A DNA stretch of 25,803 bases from Escherichia phage CBA6. Below the pieces are notes generated by a model that had not been told where the DNA came from, ran no database searches, and was given only the letters and a program-made list of their open reading frames with translations. The position numbers and the translations under genes are program-made. The first letter of the stretch is position 1; each line of letters begins with the position of its first letter. This document shows positions 1,803 to 16,822 of this stretch, one piece after another. The DNA lies in sequence record KM389300.1; one strand, written 5' to 3'.

Positions 1803-3074
1803 ATGAACGATACACAAATAAAATGTGAAGAGACTTCATCTGGTGTCAACGATTTCGTAAACCACTGGATTGATTTAGTCAACCAAAAAACGATATTCAA
1901 CACTCTTTCACTCAGTCGTGACCAGGTTCACTGGGAAGACTATCTTTACAAACACACCCCGTGCGAACTCGTTGCCAACCCCGAAACCAATCAGCAGGTC
2001 TGGTTCAAGCGTGAAGACTACTTCGCGCCGCTGTCCAATTATGCAAATGGCCAGCAGGGCATTAATGGGAGCAAACTCCGTCAGGCCATCTGGCTCATGA
2101 TGGAGCATCTTAAAGCGGGAGGATCCCCAGATCTTATCCATGGTACTGTCGTTGGTAGTCCGCAGTCCCCTATGGCGACGGCAGTCTCACGGCATTTCGG
2201 CGGCAAGACAACCACTGTGCTGGGTGCCACTAAACCAACCACATGCATGAACCATGATATGGTTTCAATGTCAGCATGGTTTGGTAGTGAATTTAACTTT
2301 GTTGGATCTGGTTACAATAGCACCATTCAGCCGCGCTGTAAGAAACTCATTGAACAATTAAATCCAAAGGCGTATTATCTGGAATATGGCATTACATTGG
2401 ATCATACCGTTCATTCACCAGAACGCATTGCTGGATTCCATATGCTGGGTGGTGAGCAGGTTGCCAATATCCCAGACCATATCACTGATCTGATCATTCC
2501 TGCTGGTTCTTGTAATTCATGCACCAGTATCCTGACAGGTTTGGCGATGCATCCGAAACCAAATCTGAAGAATGTCTATCTGATCGGGATTGGACCTAAC
2601 CGATTAGATTTCATTGAAAGTCGTTTGCGCATTATCGGTAAGCAAGCAAACCTCCCTCACATAACTGATTTCACTCGTCGCTATCACGACAACCCAGACT
2701 ATGTGTATGGTAAGAAGGATCTTCAGCATGCCTCTAAGAGCGTTTCGTTGGCTGGCCTCCTAAGTGGTATCAGGCCAAAGAACGAGCCGGATATCGTGCT
2801 TCCTCGCTTTGAGGTACACCATTGGGATCTTCATACCACTAATTGGGTTCGTTACAACGACCTCATGGATTACCAGTGGGGGGATATTGAGTTGCATCCT
2901 CGTTATGAAGGTAAGGTCATGACATGGATACAGGAACACAAACCAGAATTGCTTAATGAGAACTCATTGTTTTGGATCGTGGGGAGCAAGCCATATCTGG
3001 AAGCGATGAAAGCTGCTTGTCCTGAATTATCAATCCCCGAACATGTCCCTGTGAATGAGTTTGTCCCCAGCTAA
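1803..3074 (+). CDS. PLP-dependent enzyme, ACC deaminase / D-cysteine desulfhydrase fold (tryptophan synthase beta-like, fold type II)
   Basis: Family motifs in order: FKREDYFAP...NGSKLRQ (KRDD...GGNKLRKLE block with candidate PLP lysine), VVGSPQSPMATAVSRHFG (GxxQSNHxR phosphate loop), IIPAGSCNSCTSILTGLA, HPRYEGKVM (DPVYTGKAM block), IVGSKP (HTGG block); 423 aa with a C-terminal extension. Confidence 0.75.
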   Translation: MNDTQIKCEETSSGVNDFVNHWIDLVNQKTIFNTLSLSRDQVHWEDYLYKHTPCELVANPETNQQVWFKREDYFAPLSNYANGQQGINGSKLRQAIWLMMEHLKAGGSPDLIHGTVVGSPQSPMATAVSRHFGGKTTTVLGATKPTTCMNHDMVSMSAWFGSEFNFVGSGYNSTIQPRCKKLIEQLNPKAYYLEYGITLDHTVHSPERIAGFHMLGGEQVANIPDHITDLIIPAGSCNSCTSILTGLAMHPKPNLKNVYLIGIGPNRLDFIESRLRIIGKQANLPHITDFTRRYHDNPDYVYGKKDLQHASKSVSLAGLLSGIRPKNEPDIVLPRFEVHHWDLHTTNWVRYNDLMDYQWGDIELHPRYEGKVMTWIQEHKPELLNENSLFWIVGSKPYLEAMKAACPELSIPEHVPVNEFVPS

Positions 3075-3564: not shown

Positions 3565-3599
3565 ATAGTCCAAAGCGGTTTATTCAAGAGGACATTACC

Positions 3600-4058
3600 A
3601 TGCCAATTTCGAAATTATTTGAATCTGATTCCCCAGCAGATATGCCTATCTGGACTGGTGTTCAAGACGGGACTACGATTGAATTCTTTGAGCGCGGGGA
3701 AACAGGCGCTGAAGAGATTTATGCTTCCGTACAAGGGACAGACGTCGTCCGCGCCGCCGTAGCTCTTGCTACATTTTTAGAGGACGCCCCGATTGACGGT
3801 ATCCCGTTTGAAGCCCATGTGGACCCAGAAGACCCGACGTCTATCATCATTACAGTCCAGGGTGCTGAATATACATCTTACAGTATTGAGCACGATGAAG
3901 AAACAGGGGCGCTGTTTATAGCCACGGATCTTCAATTGGAAGATGACGAAATTGAATATCTGAAACAGAATGGTCGTCTTCCGGAGTACTCTGACGAAGA
4001 ATTGGATTCTGCGTTTGATGAAGTAGACGATGAAGACGACTTTTGGGATGGGAAATAA
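3600..4058 (+). CDS. highly acidic hypothetical protein (152 aa), possible DNA mimic or partner of the ART-like protein
   Basis: ATG at 3600 with SD AGAGGA (3587..3592); very Asp/Glu-rich, ending DEVDDEDDFWDGK; 35 nt after the ART-like gene. Confidence 0.6.
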   Translation: MPISKLFESDSPADMPIWTGVQDGTTIEFFERGETGAEEIYASVQGTDVVRAAVALATFLEDAPIDGIPFEAHVDPEDPTSIIITVQGAEYTSYSIEHDEETGALFIATDLQLEDDEIEYLKQNGRLPEYSDEELDSAFDEVDDEDDFWDGK

Positions 4059-4088
4059 ACAAAGGGGCTTAATGCCCCTTTGTTTTAG
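4057..4088. terminator. bidirectional intrinsic terminator between convergent genes
   Basis: Stem AAAGGGGC (4061..4068) / GCCCCTTT (4074..4081), loop TTAAT; T-tract on both strands; sits between the + gene ending at 4058 and the - gene ending at 4085. Confidence 0.75.
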
Positions 4089-4459
4089 ATATCGTTTGTG
4101 TGTACTGTGAATCTCATTGTTACGACATCTGTTCTTTCATCCTTGTGTAATTCGAACTTCAAACCTTCCTTCAGAAGACTCGCCACCAACAATGTTTTGA
4201 ACTTTTCGACTTGCTTGTCTGTTGGGTATTTTTGAGACTTATATGCCTGTTGAAATGCGGTTAATATTTCGTCAAACCTGTGGCCACCAACAGCGTACAC
4301 CATGTCATCAATTTCAACTCCGCGATTTGCTTGGGAAACGAGTTGCTTCTTCATTTTACAAACAAAGATATCAACGGCTTTTTCAACTATCCCCATGGCT
4401 TCCCAAATCTGAGCCTGGTCAATCGTAGTCTGTAATTCTTGTGCGAAGTTCTTCATCAT
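4085..4459 (-). CDS. hypothetical protein (124 aa)
   Basis: ATG at 4459 (- strand) with SD GAGGAAGG; start overlaps the stop of the upstream - strand gene (ATGA overlap), suggesting translational coupling. Confidence 0.55.
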   Translation of the reverse strand: MMKNFAQELQTTIDQAQIWEAMGIVEKAVDIFVCKMKKQLVSQANRGVEIDDMVYAVGGHRFDEILTAFQQAYKSQKYPTDKQVEKFKTLLVASLLKEGLKFELHKDERTDVVTMRFTVHTNDI

Positions 4460-4998
4460 TTCACCTTCCTCGTTGGATATTGGTTAAAGAGTTTGCCCAG
4501 CTTGGACACATTGATAATCGTCTGAGTCTTCCAGCGCTCGATCCCCTCTGGTGTAGTCACGGTTAGGATTGAATAACCCCATATATGGGAACCATTCAGC
4601 ACAGCCGCGCTGTGCCCACCAATTTTGTCTTCCAGTTTACAAATGAAAGACTCATATTGCATCGCAGCGTTTCGACGTGCTTCTTTGACAAACAGAGCAT
4701 GGCGCTCAGGATCAGCTTTGACAATATCCGGCTTCCCAGGTATGTAAGAAGGATTCACTGCCTGGGTCAAAGAACGGTAGAGCGCATGTTTTGATTTCAT
4801 TCGTTGGTAATCTGGATCACCAAACTTGACACCAACCGAAGATGGCCACGGAGCGCACTTCTCGACGTCCCAGCCGTTGGATGCCAGATCGTCCATTATG
4901 TTCTTGATGACTTTGTTCGCGTACTGCTCAGCAGCATTCTCAGCATCAACCAGCAGAGGCTCAACTGCGATACGGACAGGAGTTTTTGGCATATTCAT
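4456..4998 (-). CDS. hypothetical protein (181 aa from the SD-supported start)
   Basis: Preferred start ATG at 4998 (MNMPKTPV...) with SD AAGGA 8 nt upstream; the alternative ATG at 5046 directly abuts the upstream stop and lies inside a hairpin; contains KHALY and ERHALF motifs of unknown meaning. Confidence 0.5.
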   Translation of the reverse strand: MNMPKTPVRIAVEPLLVDAENAAEQYANKVIKNIMDDLASNGWDVEKCAPWPSSVGVKFGDPDYQRMKSKHALYRSLTQAVNPSYIPGKPDIVKADPERHALFVKEARRNAAMQYESFICKLEDKIGGHSAAVLNGSHIWGYSILTVTTPEGIERWKTQTIINVSKLGKLFNQYPTRKVK

Positions 4999-5926: not shown

Positions 5927-6499
5927 TTATTTCTTCAGATCAGGCCACGCACCAGAGGTCGCAGTAGACCCAGCTGGGGGAGCAGACTCAAGATCGGGAG
6001 AACCCGACTGAGTAACAACAGTGGGATCTTTGTTAACCACTTTGACCCCAAACTGTTTGAGAGCATCCACAGCTTGCGCCTTCCGGCTATTGCTTTTGTA
6101 ATGGTTGTACCCCTTGATACCGAATGATGCACTAATTGCTGTCAATAGCGAAGCAGTATACCAATCAGGCGCTGTTTCAAGGGCTTGCATACCATCAATT
6201 ACTGCTTTGATGAAATCCCCTTTATGATACTCGGTGGGGAACATTAGAAGTTCCACAACCGGAGCGATCATAACAAGGATAGCGGGAACAGCCAAAACGA
6301 TTGTCCAGAATTCATCTTTCCAAGATCCGCCGACTTCGGTAATCTTAGAAAGTTCCCATTCTGAAGAAGACTTTATTGCCTCCAGTTTAACATCGTGTTT
6401 AGCCTGAACAATTTCCCGCTTATATTGCACCAAATCAGTCCCAAGATTCCAGAGTTGCTTTAGCGCCCCTGGAATCATGCTCACAAAGGGGATTGCCAT
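5927..6499 (-). CDS. membrane protein (191 aa), central hydrophobic helix; divergent from the DNA polymerase gene
   Basis: Start ATG at 6499 (MAIPFVSM...) with SD GGAG 7 nt upstream; central TM segment FWTIVLAVPAILVMIAPVV; Ser/Thr/Pro-rich C-terminus; ORF extends to 6559 but without SD. Confidence 0.55.
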   Translation of the reverse strand: MAIPFVSMIPGALKQLWNLGTDLVQYKREIVQAKHDVKLEAIKSSSEWELSKITEVGGSWKDEFWTIVLAVPAILVMIAPVVELLMFPTEYHKGDFIKAVIDGMQALETAPDWYTASLLTAISASFGIKGYNHYKSNSRKAQAVDALKQFGVKVVNKDPTVVTQSGSPDLESAPPAGSTATSGAWPDLKK

Positions 6500-6528
6500 T
6501 TTAAACTCCTTGGTCATTGAACGTTCCT

Positions 6529-6568
6529 CGGTTAAATTACGGGGACGTGCTGACGGCACGGTTAACCG
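6529..6568 (+). promoter_or_regulatory. structured leader of the DNA polymerase gene, candidate translational operator
   Basis: Inner hairpin CGTGC (6546..6550) / GCACG (6556..6560) with loop TGACG, nested in an outer stem CGGTTAA (6529..6535) / TTAACCG (6562..6568) whose 3' end abuts the SD GGAG (6568..6571); ATG at 6579. Confidence 0.4.
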
Positions 6569-6578: not shown

Positions 6579-9575
6579 ATGACTGTTTTCTATACGAACG
6601 TTGCCCGACAGGGTAACGACCTTCTGATTCGTATCGCAGACGACAACGGCAATCGCCGCATGTTGCGTAAGAAATTCGAACCCACCTTGTATTTACCCAC
6701 AGCTGATTATTCCAAAGTTGAAAAGATTGGCCTCCTCAATGAACCGTTGGTGTCTAAAAAGTTTGCATCAATGCGAGACGCTGACAACTATCTTGAGGAG
6801 TACAAGGAGGTCGAAGGGGCTGCGGTGTATGGACAAACGGATTATGCATATCAATTCATCGCCCATAGTTTTCCTGGGATGATCACACCTGATTATTCAA
6901 ATATCCACATCGCCAACGTGGATATCGAAGTGTTCTCGGCTGGTTGGCGTGACGGAGAAATGACTAAAGGTCCATTCCCACACGCAACGATTGAATCTCA
7001 CACGTTTAAAGGCAGCGAGGCGCGGGTTCGTCGTTTCCATAAGCAAGTACTGGCCAACCATGATTTCGTTCGGGAGCATTTCCCTGGTTCCTTTATTTCC
7101 AATAACGTGACTGACCAATTCCCTATAATTGACAGTAACGGTAAAATCACACAGAACATGAATGCGGCGTTCCCTATTACGCTGATACAGCTCCAAGATA
7201 TGAATACCAATAAATTCTATGTCTGGGGCATGCCGTGTTCCAAGGATCGCCATAAATTCAAATATGACCCCAATGATGAAGAAGTCGGCGGTCTTGAGGT
7301 TGAATATAAAGAATATACGACGGAACAAGATCTGCTTCGCGCCTTCTTAGATTACTGGTCGGAACGTCAATTTGACGGTTGGACGGGGTGGAACATTGAA
7401 ACGTTCGATAGCCCCTATTTGGTTGAACGAATTATGCAGGTTCTTGGTGAATCTGAAGCCCAGCGCCTCAGTCCTTGGGGTAAACTCAAGAAACGTTTCA
7501 TCAAAGACCGTAAAGGCGACGTGACTTCTTATCAATTCGTGGGTTGTCCTATGATGGACTACATGCAAGTTTACAAGAAACACACTTACACCACCCGCGA
7601 AAAATACTCACTGGACTGGATCGCTTATTGTGAACTCGGTGAGAAGAAGTTGGATTATAGTGAAAGCAAATCATTGTATGACCTTTATTTCAATGATTAT
7701 TGCAAGCATACGCGATATGGTATCAAAGACGTCAAGCTGGTGTGGCGCTTAGAACAAAAACTGCGTTTGATACAGCTGATGTTTGTATTGGCTTATCGCA
7801 CTAAATCCAACTATGAAGACGGTCTCGGCACTGTAGCACCGTGGCTGGCAATGTGCTATTATCGTCTTTATGAGAAGGGGATTGTCCCGAAAATCCAGCG
7901 CGTCTATGATGGGCCAACAGATTTTGAAGGCGCATATGTCATGGAGGTTGCCCCAGGGATATATTTCTGGGTCTTCTCTGAGGACTTAAACTCCCTGTAT
8001 CCCCACATCATACAGCAATACAACCTTGGTCCAGAGACTATCGTTTCTGATAAGCACACACGCCGTGATATTATTGAGGCCATGTGTGAGGAATTGACCA
8101 AAGCGATGAATGATATGACAACGCCGATGAATAAACGTCGTCATCTCAAAAATCTTCACGACAAGTTGCAGCGTGCTATTGATGAACGCATACAAGTTGT
8201 TGATGAATTGGTCGCGCTGGGCGAATTCCATTTTGAAACACTACGCCGATATAACGTTTCGTTTACCCCGAACGTTCAGTTCTTCAGTAATGAGAAGATG
8301 TCCTTCCTTTCCGAAATTATGCGAGGCATATACGCTGACCGTAAAGGAGAGAAAGCAACTGGCCTGAAGTATGAGCAATGGGCTGGTTGGTGTAAGGAAA
8401 TGTCTAAAGGTGATTTCCACCTTGAATCCGCCATGAAGTCTCGTTTCTACGATCCTGAATGGTATGAAGAACACAAGCACATCGATCTTGATCACCTGAC
8501 TGAAGTCATGCACAAGTGGGAAGATCTGGGGGTTGCTCAAGATACGTTACAACAAGGTCTGAAGATCTTGATGAACGCAGGTTATGGCGCAATCTCCAAC
8601 GTCTGGTTTAAAGAATACTTCAACATCAACATCGCTGAAGCAATCACCACTTCCGGCCAGCTGATCAACAAATGGAACAAACGCCACACCGATGATTATC
8701 TGAACAAACTTTGCGGCACTACTGGTCAGGATTTTGTTATCGCGGGTGATACTGACTCCAACTACATTTGCATTGAACGTCTGGTCAAGCAATTGTGGCC
8801 TGAAGAAAAGGATCATCACAAACTCGTTGATAACATTGACCAATGGATCAAAGAGAATTACCAGCCAAAAACCAGTGAATGGGCGCAGTTGTTGTGTAAT
8901 ACCATGAACGGGTTTGAGCAGCGCATGGTCTGGGAACGTGAGGTCATCGCATCGTCTGCTGTATGGCGAGCCAAGAAGATGTATTGCATGGCAGTATACG
9001 ATAGCGAAGGCATCAAGTATGAGAAGCCAAAGATCAAATTCAAAGGTCTGGAAGCGCGTAAATCTACAACGCCGGAATGGTGTCGTGAGCGTCTGGTTAA
9101 ATGCTATGAGAAAGTTCTGCTGGGGACGGAGGCTGAAGTTCAGGAATTGATCGCGGGTTATAAGAAGGAATATATGGAATTAACCGTGGATGATATTGCT
9201 CAAGCCTCTGGCGTTAGTGATATTGAGAAGTGGTTAGACGGCAACGGAAATTATATCAGTGGCACACACTTTGCTGCCAAGGCTTGTATTATGTACAACA
9301 AGCTGATAGACAAGCATGAAGACCTCGGTCTCCCGCCGATAGAATCTGGCGATAAGGTTAAAATCATTAACCTGAAACCTGGGAACCCTGTGGGGAACGA
9401 CCGCATAGCCTTCCCTGACTTCCTCCCTCCGGAGTTGGGGCTGGATAAGTGGGTAGATTACCACACCACGTTTGAAAAGACCTTCATAGAGCCGATTCAG
9501 TCTATTCTAGACGTGGTTGGTTGGTCTCACAAACGTCGAGTTAATCTGTTGTCCATGATGGGCAAGAAAGGTTGA
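6579..9575 (+). CDS. DNA polymerase, family B (T4 gp43-like), 999 aa
   Basis: N-terminus MTVFYTNVARQGN... resembles T4 gp43 MKEFYISIETVGN...; exo I motif VDIEVF; motif A DLNSLYPHII; motif C IAGDTDSNYI; start at 6579 chosen for SD GGAG (6568..6571) rather than the SD-less ORF start at 6477. Confidence 0.93.
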   Translation: MTVFYTNVARQGNDLLIRIADDNGNRRMLRKKFEPTLYLPTADYSKVEKIGLLNEPLVSKKFASMRDADNYLEEYKEVEGAAVYGQTDYAYQFIAHSFPGMITPDYSNIHIANVDIEVFSAGWRDGEMTKGPFPHATIESHTFKGSEARVRRFHKQVLANHDFVREHFPGSFISNNVTDQFPIIDSNGKITQNMNAAFPITLIQLQDMNTNKFYVWGMPCSKDRHKFKYDPNDEEVGGLEVEYKEYTTEQDLLRAFLDYWSERQFDGWTGWNIETFDSPYLVERIMQVLGESEAQRLSPWGKLKKRFIKDRKGDVTSYQFVGCPMMDYMQVYKKHTYTTREKYSLDWIAYCELGEKKLDYSESKSLYDLYFNDYCKHTRYGIKDVKLVWRLEQKLRLIQLMFVLAYRTKSNYEDGLGTVAPWLAMCYYRLYEKGIVPKIQRVYDGPTDFEGAYVMEVAPGIYFWVFSEDLNSLYPHIIQQYNLGPETIVSDKHTRRDIIEAMCEELTKAMNDMTTPMNKRRHLKNLHDKLQRAIDERIQVVDELVALGEFHFETLRRYNVSFTPNVQFFSNEKMSFLSEIMRGIYADRKGEKATGLKYEQWAGWCKEMSKGDFHLESAMKSRFYDPEWYEEHKHIDLDHLTEVMHKWEDLGVAQDTLQQGLKILMNAGYGAISNVWFKEYFNINIAEAITTSGQLINKWNKRHTDDYLNKLCGTTGQDFVIAGDTDSNYICIERLVKQLWPEEKDHHKLVDNIDQWIKENYQPKTSEWAQLLCNTMNGFEQRMVWEREVIASSAVWRAKKMYCMAVYDSEGIKYEKPKIKFKGLEARKSTTPEWCRERLVKCYEKVLLGTEAEVQELIAGYKKEYMELTVDDIAQASGVSDIEKWLDGNGNYISGTHFAAKACIMYNKLIDKHEDLGLPPIESGDKVKIINLKPGNPVGNDRIAFPDFLPPELGLDKWVDYHTTFEKTFIEPIQSILDVVGWSHKRRVNLLSMMGKKG

Positions 9576-9588
9576 TTCAATAAAACAA

Positions 9589-9608
9589 AGGGGGATATAA
9601 TTCCCCCT
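9589..9608 (+). terminator. hairpin after the DNA polymerase gene, possible terminator
   Basis: Stem AGGGGGA (9589..9595) / TCCCCCT (9602..9608), loop TATAAT; preceded by TTCAATAAAA (9576..9585); T-tract is weak. Confidence 0.45.
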
Positions 9609-9635
9609 GTTATCCCTTTGACAACAGGTATTGTT

Positions 9636-9980
9636 ATGAAACTCAATAAGATTCTTCTGGTGTGTGCTCTGGCTTTCTCTACCACTGCATGCTCTACCCT
9701 TCTGGACGTTGCGTCTACTGTTGACCTCGATGCGCCGACGTTCACCAATCAGCAAGCGGTGAATAAGATGGAAGACACCATCAAGGCACATGCAGCTTTG
9801 GACAACACCACTCCTGGTCCGTTGCAAACTGTTTGCAATTATGATGATTCCATCCAGGAAGATGAAACCTATCACTGCACCACTTACGTGAAGGAATCTT
9901 CTGTGGTTCTGTATGCCGATTGCACCGAAGAGCAATGCACCGCAACGGGTTATGACAATGTGGAGAAATCTGATGAATAA
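9636..9980 (+). CDS. putative lipoprotein (114 aa)
   Basis: ATG at 9636; N-terminus MKLNKILLVCALAFSTTAC resembles a signal peptide with a lipobox-like Cys; acidic, Cys-containing mature part; the ORF track start at 9618 is TTG. Confidence 0.5.
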   Translation: MKLNKILLVCALAFSTTACSTLLDVASTVDLDAPTFTNQQAVNKMEDTIKAHAALDNTTPGPLQTVCNYDDSIQEDETYHCTTYVKESSVVLYADCTEEQCTATGYDNVEKSDE

Positions 9981-10755
9981 TCACGTTGGTCTGTATGACG
10001 CATGTTCTAAAATTGGCGGGTTATATCGCGTTCTGGTGGATGTGGATTTGACTCTGGTTGATTCCCTATCGCCGTGGGTTGAATGGTTCAATATTTCTAA
10101 TTCTAAAGCCGCTGCGGAAAATATGGGATGTCACGACTACCCATCTGAATTTCAACCAATCACCAAAGAGTGTTATATGTCACACGCTGGTGATCTGGCG
10201 ATCCTCATGCGTGAACGCGCGCATCCGGCCTGGTTAACGCGCCGTGTATTCGTTGCTGGTCAGTGGATGGATTCGCCAACAGGACGTGATCCGATGGATT
10301 GGTGGCGTATGCCTGATCTGTATTCCAGAATGTCACCACTGCCAGGGGCTGTTGAATTCCTTACGAATTTAAAGGCCGCTCTCCTTCAGAAGTTTGAGCA
10401 AGTGGAAATGGTGGCTGTTACAAAATGCGAACCGGAACACGAACGCAGCAAGCGTCAGTTCATATACCATCACTTTGAATCGTTGATTAATGGGTTCGTG
10501 AGCACGGATGAAAAGCATCTGCTTGCTGGCGATGTCCTGATCGACGACAATCCGAAGTATGTTGAGCCGTGTGCCCTGAATAACATCTTCGTCATCTTCG
10601 TCCCTCAGGGCAATTATGAAAAACTGGATCTTTCGAATTGCGAGGATATGCTTTATATTAAGCATGTAGAAGGCCAAAACCACTTTGACTTCTTGAATCG
10701 TAACCTCGATGAAGTGGTGAATCGCCTGGTTTCTCATTATCAATATGTCCGATAG
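9973..10755 (+). CDS. HAD-superfamily phosphatase, 5'(3')-deoxyribonucleotidase-like (260 aa)
   Basis: Start ATG 9973 with SD GGAG (9962..9965), overlapping the upstream stop; HAD motif I VLVDVDLTLVD (DxDxT) and motif IV GDVLIDDNP. Confidence 0.65.
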   Translation: MNNHVGLYDACSKIGGLYRVLVDVDLTLVDSLSPWVEWFNISNSKAAAENMGCHDYPSEFQPITKECYMSHAGDLAILMRERAHPAWLTRRVFVAGQWMDSPTGRDPMDWWRMPDLYSRMSPLPGAVEFLTNLKAALLQKFEQVEMVAVTKCEPEHERSKRQFIYHHFESLINGFVSTDEKHLLAGDVLIDDNPKYVEPCALNNIFVIFVPQGNYEKLDLSNCEDMLYIKHVEGQNHFDFLNRNLDEVVNRLVSHYQYVR

Positions 10756-10764
10756 GAGCACATC

Positions 10765-11070
10765 GTGCAAGAACAAAATAAAGTTGTAGAAAGCCCTGAC
10801 AAGCGTTCCGGTGACAGTGATATGGATGGTATCATTATCCATGTAAACAACTTCATCCGTAATCAGAATCCACCAACTTCCGTTGGCGCAGCGTTGGAAT
10901 TAAAACGAGTTCTGATTGAAAACGGTATGGCACCTGATGACGACGAAATTTTCTATAACTTTGATGACCAGTATAAAGTGAAGTTTGTTGAGAATGGTCA
11001 TCCGCAAGTTGCCGTGTTTTGGGCACCTTGGTTGGGTGGAGTGAGTTGGCGCATTGAGGATGCTGCATAA
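10765..11070 (+). CDS. hypothetical protein (101 aa)
   Basis: GTG start at 10765 with SD TAGGAG (10753..10758); stop overlaps the kinase start (TAATG at 11068..11072). Confidence 0.5.
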   Translation: MQEQNKVVESPDKRSGDSDMDGIIIHVNNFIRNQNPPTSVGAALELKRVLIENGMAPDDDEIFYNFDDQYKVKFVENGHPQVAVFWAPWLGGVSWRIEDAA

Positions 11071-11984
11071 TGGCAAAGATCATCGTAATCAAAGGAACCA
11101 GCGGCACGGGTAAAGGCACTCGTGTCGTACAGTTCATCGAGTGGCTCCGCACTAAGCTGAAGCCGACTGAATTGTCGTACACTGTTGGGGATAAGACGCG
11201 CTCCTTCGGCCTGAAATTTGAAGAGCTGAAGTTAATCTTCGTCGGCCAATACACAGTGTCCAATAAATCCGGCCTGGCGTCTTGGACCTCTATGGACGCC
11301 ATTCATGCTGCCACAGGCTCTGGGGATATTGCTCGCGACCTCGTCAAGGGTTGGCTGGCTCAGGGATATACCCTGGTGTGTGAGGGCGAACCTCTGATGC
11401 TGTCGGACAAGTGGCGTCCTGAATGGATGTTCAATAACTATCCGATTGATTCTTTGGCGCTGCTGTACTTTGCATATCCAGACCGCTATCAGTACGATGC
11501 CCGCATCCGTGGACGCTCTGGTAAAGAAGCGGGGGATTCCGGCTGGTCGCGCAACGAATCTTACTCCAAGGAGTTCGAGAAGTCCAAGGCTGAAATGCTG
11601 GCGCTTGGCTGGAATGTTGCCGTGGATGATTACAGTGGGCAAGACGTTTTGTACCACCAAACGGCTACGAACACCCAAGAATTCAAGACTGGGAATGATA
11701 GCGAATTGGCTATGTTGCCGTTCGACGCCCCGTTGTGGGTGGTGGGTAATGCTATCTATCATCAGCTTGGCACAGTTTGCCGCGCTAACAATCTGATGTC
11801 GAAAGACTTCTACGGCTATTGCGAAACCAATCCGATGACGCGTGAAGTCGGCGGTCAGGATCCTTTGGCTCACAGAGTGCCTGAGAAGCCGCAGAAGGCA
11901 TCCAAAACTAAAAACAAGGCCGTCGCCAAGGAAGAACCAAAGACCTCATCCGTGTCCCTTCTGGGGCTAATGCGTAAGGTGTAG
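11070..11984 (+). CDS. P-loop kinase, NMP-kinase-like Walker A; candidate nucleic-acid (5-hydroxymethyl-pyrimidine DNA) kinase
   Basis: N-terminal Walker A GTSGTGKGT (the GxxGxGKGT form typical of adenylate/NMP kinases) at residues 9-17; 304 aa; C-terminal tail KTSSVSLLGLMRKV matches the polymerase tail. Confidence 0.7.
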   Translation: MAKIIVIKGTSGTGKGTRVVQFIEWLRTKLKPTELSYTVGDKTRSFGLKFEELKLIFVGQYTVSNKSGLASWTSMDAIHAATGSGDIARDLVKGWLAQGYTLVCEGEPLMLSDKWRPEWMFNNYPIDSLALLYFAYPDRYQYDARIRGRSGKEAGDSGWSRNESYSKEFEKSKAEMLALGWNVAVDDYSGQDVLYHQTATNTQEFKTGNDSELAMLPFDAPLWVVGNAIYHQLGTVCRANNLMSKDFYGYCETNPMTREVGGQDPLAHRVPEKPQKASKTKNKAVAKEEPKTSSVSLLGLMRKV

Positions 11985-11987
11985 ATA

Positions 11988-12191
11988 ATGAAAAAGATGT
12001 CTAAATATTTTGTGTTCGTCGGTCTGGTGATGTGCTTTTCAGCTATGCTTGTCGGTGTTATGAAATATTTGGGCATCGTTGAATTAGACTCAACCGAAAT
12101 ATTGAATGTTTACGCGTTATATTATTCGGGCGGTGTCGCTTTATTAACGCCGTTCGTTTACAACATAATTGAAAGTTTCAAAAGGAATTAA
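11988..12191 (+). CDS. small hydrophobic protein (67 aa), probably two TM helices
   Basis: ATG at 11988 with SD AAGGTG (11975..11980); hydrophobic segments FVFVGLVMCFSAMLVGV and GGVALLTPFVYNII. Confidence 0.45.
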   Translation: MKKMSKYFVFVGLVMCFSAMLVGVMKYLGIVELDSTEILNVYALYYSGGVALLTPFVYNIIESFKRN

Positions 12192-12192
12192 A

Positions 12193-12543
12193 ATGAAAAT
12201 TCTTATTCCACGCAATGCCATTGCTATTGCTGTTGACTATCGTGGCGATGCCAATATGATTAACGCTGTCCGATATTATCCGGAACAGAATAAAATCATT
12301 CCCCAATTCCAGCTGAACACCAATCCATCTTCTAAAGATTTCGGTGCATGGCGGCAAATTGGGTTGGCACGGACTCAGGTTAATGCCCAGCATTATATTT
12401 CTGAAAAAACGAAAACCGCCAAGCAAATCTGGGTAGTATCCAATGACCGTCGGTTCCTTCCAATTTGGTCTTTGGGCCAGCCCGTTTTAAACCCTGAAGA
12501 TATCCAACTCGAAGCCGAGGTGAAGGATGACGCATCTATCTAA
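12193..12543 (+). CDS. hypothetical protein (116 aa)
   Basis: ATG at 12193 with SD AGGA (12183..12186); the ORF track start at 12169 is TTG. Confidence 0.5.
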   Translation: MKILIPRNAIAIAVDYRGDANMINAVRYYPEQNKIIPQFQLNTNPSSKDFGAWRQIGLARTQVNAQHYISEKTKTAKQIWVVSNDRRFLPIWSLGQPVLNPEDIQLEAEVKDDASI

Positions 12544-13762
12544 AATGCCGACAGGTTATACGCCTCCGGCTGAATGGAAGTACCCAATTGATTTGTCAAT
12601 CGATTATCGTAAGCCAGAGAATCGGATGTATCTGCTCAAAGCATGGGTGGAGGCGCTGTCGTATACGGAAGAACACAACCAACAAGTTCGTCTGATGGAT
12701 TATGCGATTGAAGTCACTGAAGGCATTACGCAGCTTGAGAAGATCGAGCGCAAGATCTGGATGGCGTTCCTTTGGGGCTGTTGTTATAATGGGATTGGCC
12801 CATGGACGATTTATAGTGAGTTTCCTGTACCGCCTCAGTCACCACAAGAGTTCAAGCGATTCTGTGATTGGTATAACCTGAACTTCGAGCGTATGCGATT
12901 CGATACTGATTGCCGCTATCGCAAATCGAAGATGATCCCGTGTGTTCAGTCCTACATTGATTGGCTGGCTGGTCGTACTCAGATGGATGCTTTCCGTCCG
13001 TTGTTGGAGACTAAACTGCAAAGTGATCAATTCGTTAAGCTATGGGACACGGCTATGGGGTGGAAATACTTCGGTCGCCTGAGCGCCTGGAACTTCCTGG
13101 AAGCCCTGAACATGGTATTCGGCAACATGTATCAGATCGACGTCCCTGGGTTCATGTTGCGTGACCGTGATGGTAGTGAGTCCAACCGCAACGGCGCGGC
13201 ATTCTTGTCAAACCGTGACGACTGGGTGACCAAGCACGGAAAGAAAAAGATCAACGGCTGTCCTATCACCGATGAAGAATGCGACATCCTTGAGGCTGAT
13301 CTTGAACAGGCATTCAAAGATTGTGTCGCCGAGTTTGGTCACATCACGTTCATCAATCGTTTGAACTTTGAGACTTCCGGCGCTTGTTGGCTTAAGAAAT
13401 TCTTCCGTCTGAAAAACACTCGTTACATCGGGTGGGATGCCGAGCGTACTTGGGATGAGATCGACTACATGGAACGCATCTGGCCTGAGTACTCCTGTAA
13501 GGCATTATGGGAAGCCCGTTCCCTCTGGCTACCAGATACCCTGTTATGCGAAAAAGCTCCTGCAGGGCACGTTCCTGGCGTCCAGAAGTGGAAGATGCCT
13601 GTGTTCTTTGAGACGGGTGTTCCTCTACATATATGGCACCTGCAGCAGGGTACGCGTTGGGAACCATCTGAGGTTTACACTAATCTGAAAATGCCCGTCC
13701 GGAAGATAGATGACAATCCGAAGTCGACCAGTGTAAACCTCATGTCTTTGTTGAAACGATGA
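12527..13762 (+). CDS. hypothetical Trp-rich enzyme (411 aa); candidate DNA base-modifying transferase carrying the polymerase-like C-terminal tail
   Basis: ATG at 12527 with SD GAGGTG (alternative in-frame ATG at 12545); no motif I can name; C-terminal tail KSTSVNLMSLLKR matches the polymerase and kinase tails; two genes downstream of the kinase. Confidence 0.6.
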   Translation: MTHLSKMPTGYTPPAEWKYPIDLSIDYRKPENRMYLLKAWVEALSYTEEHNQQVRLMDYAIEVTEGITQLEKIERKIWMAFLWGCCYNGIGPWTIYSEFPVPPQSPQEFKRFCDWYNLNFERMRFDTDCRYRKSKMIPCVQSYIDWLAGRTQMDAFRPLLETKLQSDQFVKLWDTAMGWKYFGRLSAWNFLEALNMVFGNMYQIDVPGFMLRDRDGSESNRNGAAFLSNRDDWVTKHGKKKINGCPITDEECDILEADLEQAFKDCVAEFGHITFINRLNFETSGACWLKKFFRLKNTRYIGWDAERTWDEIDYMERIWPEYSCKALWEARSLWLPDTLLCEKAPAGHVPGVQKWKMPVFFETGVPLHIWHLQQGTRWEPSEVYTNLKMPVRKIDDNPKSTSVNLMSLLKR

Positions 13763-13770
13763 TATAAATA
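13763..13770 (+). promoter_or_regulatory. T4 late-type promoter box TATAAATA
   Basis: Exact TATAAATA at 13763..13770, about 30 nt upstream of the ATG at 13801; the only exact copy I found in the window. Confidence 0.5.
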
Positions 13771-13800
13771 TCCTTGCTTATAAAAGTGAGGATATAAATC

Positions 13801-13968
13801 ATGTTACAAGATCTGTTGGTGTATGCGCTCCCAGGCGTGGTTGTTGGTTTCATTGCTGGCGCTCTGGTTTTTCGTAAACACGCGCAAGACGGTGAAGCCA
13901 TCGTCCAGAAAGGTAAAGAGATTCTGGACCAAATTGAAGCCAAGCTGGAAGAGCTGAAGAAAAAGTAA
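13801..13968 (+). CDS. small single-pass membrane protein (55 aa; below the ORF-track size cutoff)
   Basis: ATG at 13801 with SD GTGAGGA (13786..13792); TM segment LLVYALPGVVVGFIAGALVF; charged C-terminal helix; followed by a strong terminator. Confidence 0.45.
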   Translation: MLQDLLVYALPGVVVGFIAGALVFRKHAQDGEAIVQKGKEILDQIEAKLEELKKK

Positions 13969-13996
13969 TCTGACTGCGATTGCGTTCTTCAATAAA

Positions 13997-14034
13997 GGGG
14001 AATGGGTTATTATTAGCCCGTTCCCCTTTCTTTT
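13997..14034 (+). terminator. intrinsic terminator
   Basis: 10-bp stem GGGGAATGGG (13997..14006) / CCCGTTCCCC (14017..14026) with one G-U pair, then TTTCTTTT; preceded by the conserved 18-mer CGTTCTTCAATAAAGGGG (13983..14000). Confidence 0.75.
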
Positions 14035-14049
14035 ACAAGGAAATACATC

Positions 14050-14304
14050 ATGGCAATGCAACGAATTGAAGATATGGACTCCCTCGATATTGAATCTATG
14101 GTATCGGTGATTCTGGAAGAAGATCATAAAAATCCAACAAAATACCAGATGACTGAGTTAGGCGATGCTGATGCTCTTTGGAATATACTGAACGGCAACA
14201 AAAATTCCGGCAAGAGTGCGTTTGGTCTACTACATGGCGAGGGGCAAGGCGGTTTCCGTCGCGGTGAACTGAATATTATCTGTGCCGGAGGGATTACGAG
14301 ATGA
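14050..14304 (+). CDS. hypothetical protein (84 aa)
   Basis: ATG at 14050 with SD AAGGAAA (14037..14043); stop overlaps the next start (ATGA). Confidence 0.5.
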   Translation: MAMQRIEDMDSLDIESMVSVILEEDHKNPTKYQMTELGDADALWNILNGNKNSGKSAFGLLHGEGQGGFRRGELNIICAGGITR

Positions 14305-14687
14305 TGCGCCCCGAATACAAACAATATTTGTACGATCTGTTCATGAAAGAAACAGACGGCGTGTTACATCCTAAGAAAGCGACTATTGTTAAATTGCATT
14401 CTGAAGGTGATTTGTCTATTGCATATATTCGGAAAGAACTCGATTTGATGGGTATTGAATATGAAGACCATATCACTGATACACGTGCTTTAAAAAGAGC
14501 GACAGCAATCGTTCTTCATACCGTTGCAACAATTATGCATCGCCACCATGTTTCTTTTGACGATGCAATGACTCCACAGTATCATGAAGAACGTTGGGAT
14601 CTGTTGTTGAAAAATGGAGCTGAATCAGATCATAAAAATCAACTTCTTGGTATGACGAAGGAACAACTCGTGGATGGTGTGTTATGA
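14301..14687 (+). CDS. hypothetical protein (128 aa)
   Basis: ATG at 14301 with SD GGAGGG (14287..14292); stop overlaps the next start. Confidence 0.55.
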   Translation: MMRPEYKQYLYDLFMKETDGVLHPKKATIVKLHSEGDLSIAYIRKELDLMGIEYEDHITDTRALKRATAIVLHTVATIMHRHHVSFDDAMTPQYHEERWDLLLKNGAESDHKNQLLGMTKEQLVDGVL

Positions 14688-15793
14688 TTTACCTTCTGTT
14701 TGTGGTCCCTATTATTTTAGCCATATTGTTCGTGGTTTACCATCGCAAAACCCATGAACCAAAAGAAACGCTAATTGCTACTGCGATAGTGGTTGTATTA
14801 TCCTGTCTTATCCAGGCGGGAGCATACGCTGCATTTTCCCTGGGTAGTTCGGGAGATGTTGAAATTTTGAATGGGTACGTTACTGACAAGCAACGAAATA
14901 AGGTGGGTTGTAGCCATTCTTATGAATGTATGTGCTATTACACAACTTCTTGCTCTGGTTCAGGAAATAACCGATCTTGTACACAAACGCGTCATTGCAG
15001 CACGTGCTATGAGCACTCTTATGACGTTGATTGGGACGTATTAACAACCGTCGGGGATCTGAGCATTGACCGTATTGATCGTCAGGGTACTACAGAGCCT
15101 CCGCGTTGGGCGCAAGTTAAAATCGGAGAACCTGCAGCTCGTGAACATGCATATATGAACTATGTTCTGGGGAACAAGGATTCTTTATTCTCCAAATCTG
15201 ACCAACAATTCGCTGAGAAGTTCAAAGACCATATCCCGTCATATCCAAGGGTGTATGATTATTATCGGGTGACTCGTGTTCTGAATATGTCAGGGATGGA
15301 TATTCCCGTTGATTATTGGAATGATTATCTGAACAACACTTTGAAAACATTGGGGGCATCACGTCAGGTCAATATCGTGTGGGTAGTGACTTCTGGCCAG
15401 CCTGTGGAATATTTTCAGGGGCTGCTATATGCATGGTCTGGTGGTAAAAAGAACGATGTCATTGTGGTTACTGACATATCGAAGGATATGAAAATCAATT
15501 GGGGTAAATCCACGTCATTTGCTGATGGGATGAATAACATGGAACTCCATTCCCGAAACGGTCTTTCATTGACTGGCAAACCCATGGGGATATCAGTATT
15601 CCAAGAAGTTGCAGTCAATATCAGCAAAGGATATAACCGCGTTGAAATGAAGGAAATGGAGTATCTGAAATGGCGTGACCTCAAGACATGGGAAGTGATT
15701 ATCGTCGTTTTATTAGGTTGTGTTCCGTTTACCGCAATTTTCATATTAGGCCATATGCAGTACAATGGTCGCACTTACAAACGTTTGTTTTAA
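14684..15793 (+). CDS. membrane protein with Cys-rich domain (369 aa)
   Basis: Two N-terminal TM helices and one C-terminal TM helix (WEVIIVVLLGCVPFTAIFILG); Cys-rich stretch CSHSYECMCYYTTSCSGSGNNRSCTQTRHCSTCYEHSYD between them; directly upstream of the LemA-like gene. Confidence 0.6.
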   Translation: MIYLLFVVPIILAILFVVYHRKTHEPKETLIATAIVVVLSCLIQAGAYAAFSLGSSGDVEILNGYVTDKQRNKVGCSHSYECMCYYTTSCSGSGNNRSCTQTRHCSTCYEHSYDVDWDVLTTVGDLSIDRIDRQGTTEPPRWAQVKIGEPAAREHAYMNYVLGNKDSLFSKSDQQFAEKFKDHIPSYPRVYDYYRVTRVLNMSGMDIPVDYWNDYLNNTLKTLGASRQVNIVWVVTSGQPVEYFQGLLYAWSGGKKNDVIVVTDISKDMKINWGKSTSFADGMNNMELHSRNGLSLTGKPMGISVFQEVAVNISKGYNRVEMKEMEYLKWRDLKTWEVIIVVLLGCVPFTAIFILGHMQYNGRTYKRLF

Positions 15794-15808
15794 CAAGAGG
15801 AAGTAAAG

Positions 15809-16378
15809 ATGTCGCAGCGTAAAGGTATTTCAATTGGTTGGATCATCGGTTTGGCGATTCTGGCTTTTGTTGTAATCGGTGTTGGTAGTTTCGTCAGTTA
15901 TTTCAATGATTTCAATCGTATTGAACAGCAAGTCAAAAAGTTCAATAAAGATTCTGAAAACCATCTGAGCAACTATACAAACAAAGTACAAGAGACGGCT
16001 CAGATACCTGGCCTGTACAAAGACGGTCTGAAAGAAGTGATCAAAGATACTTTCCAGGGTCGTTATGGTGCTGATGGTTCAAAGGCGGTTATGCAATGGA
16101 TCCAGGAACAGAACATCCAGTTTGATTCAAGCCTGTACAAAGAAATTCAGGTGGTCATCAGTTCAGGACGTGATGAATTCCGTATCAGCCAGACAAAGAA
16201 ATTGGACGCGTGTGCTATCTATGAAACCAAACTCGGCCAGTTCCCTGGATCTGTCATTGCTGGCATCTTTGGATACCCTCGCATCGATCTTGACAAGACC
16301 TGTCAGGTGGTGAGCGATACCCGTACCCAGGCCGCGTTTGACTCTGGGGTTCAGAACCCAATTAATTTCAAAGGTTAG
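15809..16378 (+). CDS. LemA-family membrane protein (189 aa)
   Basis: ATG at 15809 with SD AAGAGGAAG (15795..15803); N-terminal TM helix GWIIGLAILAFVVIGVGSFV; LemA-like C-terminal motif QFPGSVIAGIFGYP (compare FPTNxVAxxFGF). Confidence 0.6.
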   Translation: MSQRKGISIGWIIGLAILAFVVIGVGSFVSYFNDFNRIEQQVKKFNKDSENHLSNYTNKVQETAQIPGLYKDGLKEVIKDTFQGRYGADGSKAVMQWIQEQNIQFDSSLYKEIQVVISSGRDEFRISQTKKLDACAIYETKLGQFPGSVIAGIFGYPRIDLDKTCQVVSDTRTQAAFDSGVQNPINFKG

Positions 16379-16381
16379 ACC

Positions 16382-16807
16382 ATGAGCGTGAAACTTACTG
16401 AATCTTTGACTCTGGAACAGCAACAGGCTTTGTTGGATGAAGTGGTGATCTCTGCTATCAAACAGGGGATCATCCGTGACGACACGTTGCTTACCCGTCC
16501 TGAGATGATCCATCATCTGGTGGTGTGCCTTGGTGAGGCGAATAATCCTCGTAAGAAGATTCGCATGTTCAAAGGCGGGGTGATTTATCCAAATGGCCGT
16601 TTCGCCTTCCTGGAGCCAGTGCTGAAGTCTGATGGTGCCCCAAATAACGTTGGTGATCATATCAAAACTTCAGTTCCGGTAACTCCATACACTGAAGGAG
16701 TTGATGAATTGTCTTGGTTTGAGACAATTAACACCATCTACATCATGTCGCCGGATGGCAAACCCGTCCAGGATCTGCGCGGTGATAAAGTAGAATCCAA
16801 AGACTAA
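16382..16807 (+). CDS. hypothetical protein (141 aa)
   Basis: ATG at 16382, 3 nt after the upstream stop; followed by a terminator. Confidence 0.55.
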   Translation: MSVKLTESLTLEQQQALLDEVVISAIKQGIIRDDTLLTRPEMIHHLVVCLGEANNPRKKIRMFKGGVIYPNGRFAFLEPVLKSDGAPNNVGDHIKTSVPVTPYTEGVDELSWFETINTIYIMSPDGKPVQDLRGDKVESKD

Positions 16808-16822
16808 TCGTTCTTCAATAAA

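Follow-up and report, generated by a model that had tools for sequence, protein, structure and literature searches.

A shared C-terminal peptide on the DNA polymerase and thymidine-hypermodification enzymes of ViI-like phages, a putative docking motif for the sliding clamp

Genes and features of the locus

The window analyzed here, a stretch of 25,803 nucleotides from Escherichia phage CBA6 (KM389300.1), is about 99.7% identical to Salmonella phage ViI, and the features relevant to this analysis are collected in Table 1. The polymerase ORF is readable from position 6477, with the annotated start in Vi01 corresponding to 6579, and RB69 polymerase aligns with the C-terminal 399 aa of its product (E 5e-60). 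The kinase matches Pfam HMUD2 (PF18747) over residues 1-303 of 304 (E 1.9e-168), carries a P-loop (GTSGTGKGT) that is invariant across the homolog alignment, and is 98% identical to homolog cluster P0001, whose C-terminus matches that of Vi01 gp243. The 411-aa protein matches Pfam ADDT (PF18724, E 3.2e-58) and is 100% identical to Vi01 gp247. Both are DNA-modifying enzymes, with activities taken from the literature: post-replicative action on 5-hmdU in DNA has been shown biochemically for ViI gp243 kinase and gp247 transferase (PMC8989533), and the pathway role of the PLP-dependent decarboxylase gp226 comes from the same work. In ViI, only part of the thymidines are modified.

Table 1. Coordinates of the polymerase, the hypermodification enzymes and their C-terminal features within the window
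Feature	Position	Strand	Basis or remark
Family-B (gp43-type) DNA polymerase	6579..9575	+	Pfam DNA_pol_B_exo1, DNA_pol_B; phrog_262
Polymerase C-terminal tail, HKRRVNLLSMMGKKG	9528..9572	+	Putative clamp-binding peptide, polymerase type
5-hmdU DNA kinase ORF (304 aa, ViI gp243 homolog)	11070..11984	+	Translation
Kinase catalytic domain, residues 1-270, HMUD2 family	11070..11879	+	Pfam, AF2 pLDDT
Kinase linker, low-complexity, basic, flexible, approx. residues 271-290, ...PEKPQKASKTKNKAVAKEEP	11880..11939	+	Alignment, AF2
Kinase C-terminal tail, KTSSVSLLGLMRKV	11940..11981	+	Putative clamp-binding peptide
411-aa protein ORF (AADT)	12527..13762	+	Translation
Amino acid:DNA transferase (AADT, aGPT-Pplase2; ViI gp247, serine:DNA transferase), catalytic part and linker	12527..13720	+	Pfam ADDT
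Transferase C-terminal tail, KSTSVNLMSLLKR	13721..13759	+	Putative clamp-binding peptide
PLP-dependent decarboxylase (ViI gp226 homolog, same pathway)	1803..3074	+	Weak Pfam PALP match, phrog_3650

A peptide shared by three C-termini

Translation of the three ORFs returns exactly the tails listed in Table 1, each running directly into the stop codon, which bears out the observation of a first-pass annotation that polymerase (...VNLLSMMGKKG), kinase (...VSLLGLMRKV) and 411-aa protein (...VNLMSLLKR) have near-identical ends. The positions assigned there to the kinase and 411-aa tails stand; the interval given for the polymerase, 9531..9572, covers only 14 residues (KRRVNLLSMMGKKG) and omits the H at 9528-9530. 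In all three proteins the short, hydrophobic core sits 3-5 residues before the stop codon, and the ViI tails combine hydrophobic with basic residues (..MMGKKG, ..LMRKV, ..LLKR). The further claim that no other protein in the window has this tail also holds among the window ORFs. The decarboxylase of the same pathway provides an internal contrast, ending in ...VPVNEFVPS without a tail, and the gp226 counterparts in K475 and Cygsa01 likewise lack one. Tail likeness is found at the peptide level and is not that of a DNA repeat, as the cores differ in their codons (GTT AAT CTG TTG TCC ATG ATG in the polymerase, GTG TCC CTT CTG GGG CTA ATG in the kinase, and GTA AAC CTC ATG TCT TTG TTG in the transferase).

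The tail was then sought in the assembled, near-identical Vi01 genome (157,061 bp; 1141 ORFs of at least 40 aa). The core V-[NS]-L-[LM]-[SG]-[LM]-[LM] is found four times within the final 20 residues of these ORFs and never internally, while a looser pattern gives four C-terminal matches and three internal ones among 89,748 positions. From composition, 0.02 matches would be expected in 208 genes (Poisson P of about 9e-9), a value that is only indicative because the motif was defined after the data had been seen. Judged from sequence, the shared tails are beyond chance and under peptide-level selection. Only two further carriers were found in Vi01, both outside the window: a 70-aa zinc-ribbon protein (Vi01_049c, the fourth core match, ending in ..SDKVNLLSLMRK) and, as a looser fifth copy, aGPT-Pplase1 (gp160, ending in ..RGSVNLLDRLKKPE). 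ViI gp33 ends in KSKKLI, which is not of the VNLLSMM type. Two other clamp-binding motifs were considered for the window tails and rejected: the PIP box (Qxx[LIM]xx[FY][FY]), as no window tail has a Q or an aromatic pair, and the bacterial beta-clamp motif (QL[SD]LF / QLxLxL), as VNLLSMM, VSLLGLM and VNLMSLL have no Q-L start.

Relation to known clamp-binding peptides

A gp45-like clamp gene, which the first-pass annotation expected elsewhere in the genome, lies outside the window as Vi01_135c. Its product has full-length matches to 1B77/1B8H (E 2.7e-12) and 1CZD (E 6e-12), the RB69 and T4 gp45 proteins, and a gp45-type clamp is encoded in all tailed lineages that could be checked. HMMER aligned the polymerase peptide KRRVNLLSM to RB69 EKKASLFDM (RB69 residues up to 900 of 903), and polymerase tails form a graded positional series across 120 polymerase homologs. 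On these alignments, the clamp peptide of RB69/T4 gp43 is the positional homolog of the ViI polymerase tail; the C-terminal peptide of RB69 polymerase has been co-crystallized with the RB69 clamp (PMC2988020). The T4 clamp-binding tails are described in the same study as hydrophobic and acidic, a combination not met by the ViI tails, although the acidic form is present in related lineages.

Conservation and co-variation of the tail

Absence of the tail from homologs in related phages would have refuted a function for it as a clamp tether, but it is retained across all Ackermannviridae genera while the preceding linker diverges and changes length. Phages Ag3, Menlow, phiMAM1 and LIMEstone1 have x-[NS]-[LV]-[LM]-x-[LM]-[LM]-basic on all three proteins. 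The ViI dialect is found in 72 of 87 kinase homolog clusters, with other dialects in its place in 14, and a tail of some dialect occurs in 45 of 59 transferase clusters. A further 13 full-length transferase clusters are tail-less, and the one of these that was examined is located in a siphovirus-like contig. Enzyme homologs of the clamp-less phages M6 and Bane1 have no tails.

The linker of the kinase varies from 0 to approximately 30 aa and in composition among 38 aligned homologs, and a 16-aa linker deletion is tolerated in the kinase of cluster P0024. AF2 assigns high pLDDT to kinase residues 1 to approximately 270, coil with pLDDT from below 50 to 66 to residues 271-296, and a short terminal helix to residues 297-302. 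The kinase is thus predicted to consist of a folded domain, a disordered linker of variable length and a short terminal helix, an arrangement like that described for T4 gp55, with a variable linker followed by a terminal helix (PMC2988020).

Relatives from Vibrio/Aeromonas, Pseudomonas, Delftia and metagenomes have dialects of their own (..KKLW, ..NVFDLF, ..TTGLGSFFR, ..SLW and ..SLFDF; C-terminal peptides are written up to the stop codon unless followed by dots). In these diverged lineages the enzyme dialect matches the polymerase and/or gp33 and gp55 of the same phage. Polymerase, kinase, AADT, Pplase1 and the small Zn protein of Vibrio K475/K382 all end in [KR][KR]LW, with gp33 ending in KTKRLF. 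In Pseudomonas Cygsa01, polymerase ASVMDFFS, gp33 ASLTTLFG and gp55 TSIFDAFF.. are accompanied by kinase NVFDLF, AADT NDLMGFFQ, Pplase1 SVLDLF and Zn protein NSLLDFF. In Delftia PhiW-14, polymerase (AKLGAFFV), gp33 (TSLGGFAAT) and gp72 (TTLAQFAP) stand beside the validated enzymes, kinase gp37 (HGLGGFFKG) and transferase gp109 (TGLGSFFR). Among these phages, the enzyme peptide recurs on the polymerase of ViI, Cygsa01 and PhiW-14, on gp33 of the latter two, and on gp55 of Cygsa01. Blind dialect predictions held on two unseen contigs: [SAD]LW closes the polymerase, two kinases, AADT and Pplase1 alike in L029, and L031 has polymerase SLEDFFS, AADT SLFDF and kinase EFFDIFH. In a formal test, the best match of the enzyme tails was the polymerase tail of their own lineage in 15 of 15. 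Aeromonas phiA8-29 departs from this rule, with polymerase VNVLKFFK and enzymes ending in K[KR]LW; a tail identical to that of the polymerase is therefore not universal, and the clamp-docking model has to allow for two classes of clamp-binding peptide, one of polymerase type and one of gp33 type. This co-variation of dialects is the decisive evidence for a clamp tether, albeit evidence of a comparative kind.

Identity of the binding partner

The proposal that the kinase and the 411-aa protein are clamp clients is supported by dialect co-variation, homology to the RB69 peptide, the presence of a gp45-family gene and the tail-less enzymes of clamp-less phages; physical binding is inferred. Every in-silico test able to refute a clamp tether favored it, and we regard it as highly probable that the shared tail docks proteins onto the trimeric gp45-type clamp encoded by the phage itself, with binding and functional benefit both inferred. 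That the enzymes act at the fork remains an inference.

Co-variation proves only that the tails have a common partner and not its identity, so that another shared hub of the phage replisome, such as the acidic C-terminus of gp32 SSB, the clamp loader or the helicase loader, could be bound instead. The strongly basic character of the ViI and Vibrio tails would suit such a hub, as would the acidic ends of gp32 homologs (..IDEFEQFLKQD and ..LDDFERMLAQAD), but type C and type D tails occupy the same position without being basic. Furthermore, the polymerase tail aligns residue-for-residue with the RB69 peptide crystallized on the clamp, and gp33 and gp55, whose known C-terminal role is clamp binding, share the dialects in Cygsa01 and PhiW-14. 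We consider a different phage hub improbable.

Less probable still is recruitment of polymerase and enzymes to a host factor, for example the beta clamp (DnaN), with dialects reflecting adaptation to the host genus. Dialects do correlate with host group (enterobacteria, Vibrio/Aeromonas, Pseudomonas, Delftia), which means that a host partner is not formally excluded, and beta-clamp clients also bind via short hydrophobic C-terminal peptides. However, the pockets of the beta clamp are highly conserved among these hosts, so that such different dialects would be unexpected, and the tails, lacking Q, are unlike the beta-binding consensus. The tailed lineages that could be checked all encode their own gp45-type clamp, and clamp-less M6, which infects Pseudomonas, has tail-less enzymes. 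A general amphipathic signal for localization or turnover, unrelated to replication (a membrane-targeting helix or C-terminal degron), has in its favor the short terminal helix that AF2 places after a disordered linker and the resemblance of hydrophobic-plus-basic C-termini to membrane-targeting sequences, but is scarcely credible. Across three fully scanned genomes, the scan patterns matched no annotated genes other than those for polymerase, the hypermodification enzymes and a single small Zn-ribbon protein, with the tails of gp33/gp55 recognized by inspection. Neither ..SLW nor the acidic dialects of T4-like character (types C and E) resemble a membrane helix, and a degron would not account for the polymerase tail being a positional homolog of the clamp peptide of RB69.

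Proposed mechanism and significance

Under the clamp-docking interpretation, gp243 kinase, gp247 transferase and aGPT-Pplase1 (gp160), which turn 5-hydroxymethyl-dU of freshly replicated phage DNA into hypermodified 5-NeOmdU, each end, after a flexible linker, in the same kind of docking motif as T4-type polymerase, gp33 and gp55. As clamps are loaded solely on replicating DNA and then left behind there, docking would concentrate post-replicative enzymes on nascent phage DNA and would allow them to scan it in one dimension. One clamp ring has three sites and possibly carries consecutive enzymes of the pathway. In vitro, recombinant ViI enzymes modify naked DNA with no clamp present (PMC8989533, PMC5889632); catalysis therefore does not require the tail. 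A more speculative extension, which we hold to be unlikely, is that the clamp serves as a moving assembly line. One ring remaining on nascent DNA would hold kinase, transferase and aGPT-Pplase1 simultaneously, and labile 5-phosphomethyl-dU would pass directly between them. Which thymidines are modified, and how many, would then depend on clamp occupancy and on competition of the enzymes with polymerase, gp33 and gp55. In this scenario the Zn-ribbon protein (phrog_4789), which has this tail in all lineages, would bind the clamp and regulate such traffic, a role not known before.

The window encodes the same enzymes (gp243, gp247 and gp226) as the thymidine hypermodification pathway described for ViI, M6 and PhiW-14 (Lee et al. 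2018, 2021). Clamp tethering of these enzymes is not reported in the literature searched; in PMC8989533 and PMC5889632, "clamp" and "replisome" do not occur, and the single use of "C-terminal" concerns an unrelated SP10 construct. The pathway-defining papers leave unexplained how the enzymes locate and cover the whole phage genome and why no more than a fraction of thymidines is modified, and a clamp tether, if true, would offer a concrete and testable answer in which modification is coupled to replication via the sliding clamp. An ending like that of the phage's own polymerase or gp33 is a simple signature for new clamp clients in T4-like phages, already flagging an uncharacterized Zn-ribbon family, and the peptide dialects, at least six in number, form a natural co-evolution series for clamp-peptide specificity. 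For enzyme tools, the tails may be dispensable in vitro, or an added clamp and loader could make modification processive.

Comparison with known systems

As with the gp43, gp33 and gp55 epitopes of T4/RB69 (PMC2988020), the ViI tails present a short hydrophobic C-terminal peptide common to unrelated proteins after a divergent flexible linker, and gp33 and gp55 of ViI relatives also carry the enzyme dialects. The ViI-type clients differ in comprising three enzymes of thymidine hypermodification plus a small Zn-ribbon protein. The dialect of ViI (..NLLSMM-GKKG) is basic whereas that of T4 is acidic, and K-[KR]-[KR]-L-[WFI] forms a second class of dialect. T4 alpha-glucosyltransferase, likewise a post-replicative phage DNA-modifying enzyme physically associated with the phage clamp, offers a precedent, as it pulls down gp45 (Sommer et al. 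2004; PMC13216743). It differs in glucosylating 5-hmC and in being an unrelated enzyme, and the accessible part of that text describes no shared C-terminal motif. Clamp binding proved not to be the main determinant of the modification share for this enzyme, and the physiological effect of the ViI tails could therefore be modest. In ViI, a recognizable motif is instead found on several consecutive enzymes of one pathway, with binding only inferred. Eukaryotic PIP-box clients of PCNA, such as DNMT1, couple a modification or maintenance enzyme to replication via a short clamp-binding peptide. The concept is the same as that proposed for the ViI tethers, with a different clamp family and different organisms.

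Hypermodification genes and their products

Judged from its sequence, the 25.8-kb window belongs to a Salmonella phage of the ViI type (Kuttervirus, Ackermannviridae); positions 9000-14000 share 99.7% identity with Salmonella phage Vi01. This region encodes a family-B polymerase, an NT5C-like protein, a DUF7254 protein, a 304-aa P-loop protein, two small proteins and a 411-aa protein. The first-pass annotation had guessed that the P-loop protein (a kinase) and the 411-aa protein are DNA-modifying enzymes. The guess was correct, because the former matches Pfam HMUD2, “5-hmdU DNA kinase 2” (E 1.9e-168), the latter, 100% identical to Vi01 gp247, matches Pfam ADDT, “amino acid:DNA transferase” (AADT; E 3.2e-58), and ViI gp243 and gp247 are established as a 5-hmdU DNA kinase and a serine:DNA transferase (PMC5889632, PMC8989533). 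Together with the PLP decarboxylase gp226, these two turn 5-hmdU that is already part of the DNA into 5-NeOmdU (PMC5889632, PMC8989533). A PDB sequence search with kinase and transferase queries returned no solved relative, so domain boundaries were drawn from alignment and AlphaFold2.

Coordinates of features discussed in the text
Feature	Sequence	Position	Strand	Remark
233-aa protein, phrog_4050	window	1032-1733	+	amphipathic basic end ..PTFMDNMMKFLRLFKK
PLP decarboxylase gp226 counterpart	window	1803-3074
ORF divergent to polymerase	window	5927-6559	-
Polymerase, readable from ATG	window	6477		1032 aa; overlaps divergent ORF
Polymerase, Vi01-annotated start	window	6579		998 aa; length agrees with homologues
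phrog_4789 member	Vi01 (L001)	30355-30567	-
phrog_4789 member	K475 (L012 8224-8529)	58224-58529	+
phrog_4789 member	Cygsa01	109399-109710	-	unannotated
Modification cluster, Pseudomonas lineage	L015; L018 (Cygsa01)	8838-17240; 27469-35918		NT5C-like, Alc-like, kinase, AADT, Pplase1 immediately upstream of gp45, gp44, gp62; also a protein with a Pfam ALC match
Long HMUD2 kinase ORF	Dickeya LIMEstone1 (L008)	7290-8885
Vibrio polymerases	L009; L010	6030-9008; 5494-8472
Tandem HMUD2 kinase paralogues	L029	8531-9988
Tet/JBP-type dioxygenase genes directly upstream of AADT genes	L031; L032	8616-11734; 7860-11077
gp55	M6 (L024)	22261-23232		end RKATTLA
gp72, homologue of M6 gp55	PhiW-14 (L023)	13676-14683		goes on ..KATTTTLAQFAP
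Distant AADT-like gene (25% identity)	Caulobacter phage Cr30 (L027)	2788-4925		end TDKWFKVL; neighbour ends ISDLSKLF

A C-terminal tail on polymerase and enzymes

One short C-terminal peptide had been described on the polymerase, the kinase and the 411-aa transferase. ORF translation reproduced all three sequences exactly and moved the polymerase coordinates by one codon. The whole Vi01 genome was assembled and scanned for the tail core, which was present at four ORF C-termini and at no internal position. With a looser pattern there were 4 C-terminal versus 3 internal matches in about 90,000 positions, with a C-terminal expectation of 0.02 (P about 1e-8 for C-terminal enrichment, post hoc). 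These genome-wide scans exclude chance or low complexity as the source of the tails. A DNA-level repeat or recent duplication is likewise excluded, since the codons of the three window tails differ at nearly every position and the similarity is therefore kept at the peptide level. The tails meet neither the PIP box nor the bacterial beta-motif consensus.

Vi01 has two further carriers outside the window: Vi01_049c, the fourth protein with the core, a 70-aa CxxC...CxxC protein ending in KVNLLSLMRK, and, more loosely, gp160, which ends in ..SVNLLDRLKKPE and matches Pfam HMUDK_hel (aGPT-Pplase1 family). Because gp160 also carries the looser tail, the tail is present on three hypermodification enzymes, not two. 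Inspection of the ends of the second kinase gp67 and of the PLP enzyme revealed no tail. The small Cys-rich family phrog_4789 (CxCGG...CxxC), which is uncharacterised and appears below as the small Zn protein, has lineage-specific tails in ViI, K475 and Cygsa01 (KVNLLSLMRK, KTRKLW and TNSLLDFF). In the latter two its gene adjoins that of the DNA ligase. The protein is a new candidate for clamp binding. The phrog_4050 protein was left out as a further clamp client because neither K475 nor Cygsa01 has a homologue and because its C-terminus is unlike even that of Vi01_181 (..SFFRRLMDFLTK). At the DNA level its gene shares only 76% identity with Vi01_181 (neighbouring genes about 99.7%) and marks a locally divergent patch.

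The clamp-tether proposal of the first-pass annotation would have been refuted had homologues in related phages lacked the tail. In Shigella Ag3, Klebsiella Menlow, Serratia phiMAM1 and Dickeya LIMEstone1, whose kinases are 84% to 47% identical to the window kinase, polymerase, kinase and transferase all keep an x-[NS]-[LV]-[LM]-x-[LM]-[LM]-basic end (4/4), while the linker before it is divergent. A search of 5.8 billion proteins yielded 87 kinase clusters, 72 of which have the ViI-type dialect (a lineage-specific version of the tail); other ends are K[KR]LW (9/87) and N[VI]FD[LI]F or NVFSFF (5/87), and the sole cluster without a tail (1/87) is a truncated fragment. Counts were corrected by eye, the automatic classifier having misplaced some T[KR][KR]L[WF] tails. 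The tail anatomy is plain in an alignment of 38 kinases, which are conserved to an invariant PL (P265, L266), followed by a linker whose length varies from 0 to about 30 residues and then the tail. Run on this alignment, AlphaFold2 (mean pLDDT 86) predicts a confident domain over residues 1 to roughly 270; residues 271-296 are modelled as coil, with pLDDT ranging from below 50 to 66, and residues 297-302 as a short helix. T4 gp55 similarly has a variable, dispensable linker and then its clamp epitope (PMC2988020). HMUD2 kinase ORFs of about 500-530 aa, annotated as homing endonuclease F-LimXI, occur in several phages (LIMEstone1; kinase homologues P0066-P0072); an N-terminal endonuclease appears to be fused or run-on to the kinase, and the clamp-type tail is still C-terminal.

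Joint change of the tail within lineages

Our key result is that in diverged relatives the tail changes jointly in a phage's enzymes and in its canonical clamp clients.

C-terminal ends by lineage or contig
Source	Polymerase	gp33	gp55	Kinase	AADT	aGPT-Pplase1	Small Zn protein
Vibrio K475/K382	KKARKLW (after internal RVNLFAL)	KTKRLF		KTKKLW	KTRKLW	VTKRLW	KTRKLW
Pseudomonas Cygsa01 and metagenomic kin	KASVMDFFS	TTASLTTLFG	TSIFDAFF..	TTKNVFDLF	TTNDLMGFFQ	TTKSVLDLF	TNSLLDFF
Delftia PhiW-14	VAKLGAFFV	TTSLGGFAAT		TTHGLGGFFKG (gp37, validated)	TTGLGSFFR (gp109, validated)	TTTTLAQFAP (gp72)
L029	KETSALW			TTNDLW, NKSSLW	EENALW	QENSLW
L030	outside this locus				STARPLFD	TTASVFDLI
L031	ETVSLEDFFS			ILEFFDIFH	EEELSLFDF

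In a formal test we asked which lineage's polymerase tail is closest to each enzyme tail; it was that of the enzyme's own lineage in 15/15 cases (binomial P about 1e-9; conservative lineage-level figure 1/24). Sequences of PhiW-14 and of Pseudomonas phage M6 were retrieved by accession because tblastn with ViI gp247 reached neither. PhiW-14 gp37 is a member of the other P-loop family, which in ViI has no tail. The Vibrio polymerases keep an ancestral internal RVNLFALGG and have a roughly 27-residue lysine-rich extension, giving two putative clamp peptides in tandem, the second being KKARKLW.

A transferase census uncovered further dialects and one tail-less group. Blind predictions were tried, and held, on contigs previously unseen: L029 (141 kb, T4-like, metagenomic), L030, L031 (T4-like, with a Tet/JBP-based pathway) and L032, a siphovirus-like ParB/Tet-JBP contig whose transferase is tail-less and in which no clamp and no family-B polymerase were seen within 18 kb. 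The AADT and P-loop kinase3 of L031 have T4-like tails; the Tet/JBP-type dioxygenase itself has none in L031 or L032. M6, a siphovirus, has a family-A polymerase and no annotated gp45-type clamp or loader in the ~39 kb covered. Its enzymes are shorter (kinase 187 aa, transferase 291 aa, Pplase 323 aa) and have no terminal peptide common to one another or to the polymerase. Mycobacteriophage Bane1 gp3 has no tail, and these cultured negative controls, M6 and Bane1, agree with the tail pattern. M6 gp55 stops at the very point where its PhiW-14 homologue gp72 goes on; its end may be a truncated tail relic or a coincidence.

The sliding clamp as the probable tail partner

The tails are almost certainly a shared partner-binding motif, and their partner, in the absence of binding data, is probably the gp45 clamp. 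Several observations make the clamp the most likely partner. T4 gp43, gp33 and gp55 have interchangeable C-terminal clamp-binding epitopes in common, and 11 C-terminal residues of the RB69 polymerase have been crystallised on the clamp (PMC2988020). HMMER aligned the ViI polymerase to that of RB69 right to the end (..GWSHKRRVNLLSM opposite ..LDYEKKASLFDM), which demonstrates homology to the RB69 peptide. The best 120 polymerase homologues form a graded tail series: KRR-VNLLSMM-GKKG, KKK-VNVFGFF-KKG, PK-ASVMDFF-V and KK-STLESFF-T. The enzyme dialects also occur on gp33 and gp55 in Cygsa01 and on gp33 in PhiW-14, K475 and Aeromonas, and no reason other than clamp binding is known for such tails on gp33 and gp55. 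A clamp gene sought elsewhere in the genome was found: Vi01_135c is of the gp45 family and matches the RB69 and T4 clamps at full length (E about 1e-12). Modification genes of the Cygsa01 lineage directly adjoin clamp and clamp-loader genes.

Under this model, 5-hmdU would enter DNA during replication, and clamps loaded at primer termini would stay on the daughter duplex. Kinase, transferase and Pplase1 would dock via tails on flexible linkers of about 20-30 residues, slide with the clamp, phosphorylate 5-hmdU and transfer serine, and the untethered PLP enzyme would then carry out decarboxylation. The sequence analysis and the pathway papers establish what the enzymes are and do, how the tail is built, that it co-varies and that it is homologous to the RB69 peptide; binding, sliding, hand-over between enzymes and any effect on modification extent are inferred.

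Comparison with known clamp clients

The dialects do not always follow the polymerase. ViI gp33 ends in KSKKLI, closer to the Vibrio dialect than to VNLLSMM; the polymerase of Aeromonas phiA8-29 ends in KKKVNVLKFFK and its three enzymes in K[KR]LW; and gp33 of an Aeromonas phage of equal size ends in KTARLF. The simplest reading, an inference, assumes two peptide classes, a polymerase type and a gp33 type (K-[ST]-[KR]-[KR]-L-[FWI]), of which enzymes use one or the other and the Vibrio polymerases carry both. Two classes would fit a gp45 with at least two attachment sites (PMC2988020). By the same inference they coincide in T4, and likewise in Cygsa01 and PhiW-14.

The words “clamp” and “replisome” are absent from both pathway-defining papers, and in vitro the ViI enzymes act on naked DNA with no clamp present (PMC5889632, PMC8989533). 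Full-text literature searches found no paper tying 5-HMUDK, AADT or aGPT-Pplase to a clamp. DNMT1-PCNA offers a precedent. Another is T4 alpha-glucosyltransferase, which binds gp45 (Sommer 2004; confirmed in PMC13216743), and for which clamp binding was not the main determinant of its modification share (PMC13216743). The T4 epitope is acidic, whereas the ViI dialect is basic. On support that is good in silico and without bench data, the tails are best classed with the T4-type C-terminal clamp-binding peptides, a known kind to which they would add new members and new dialects.
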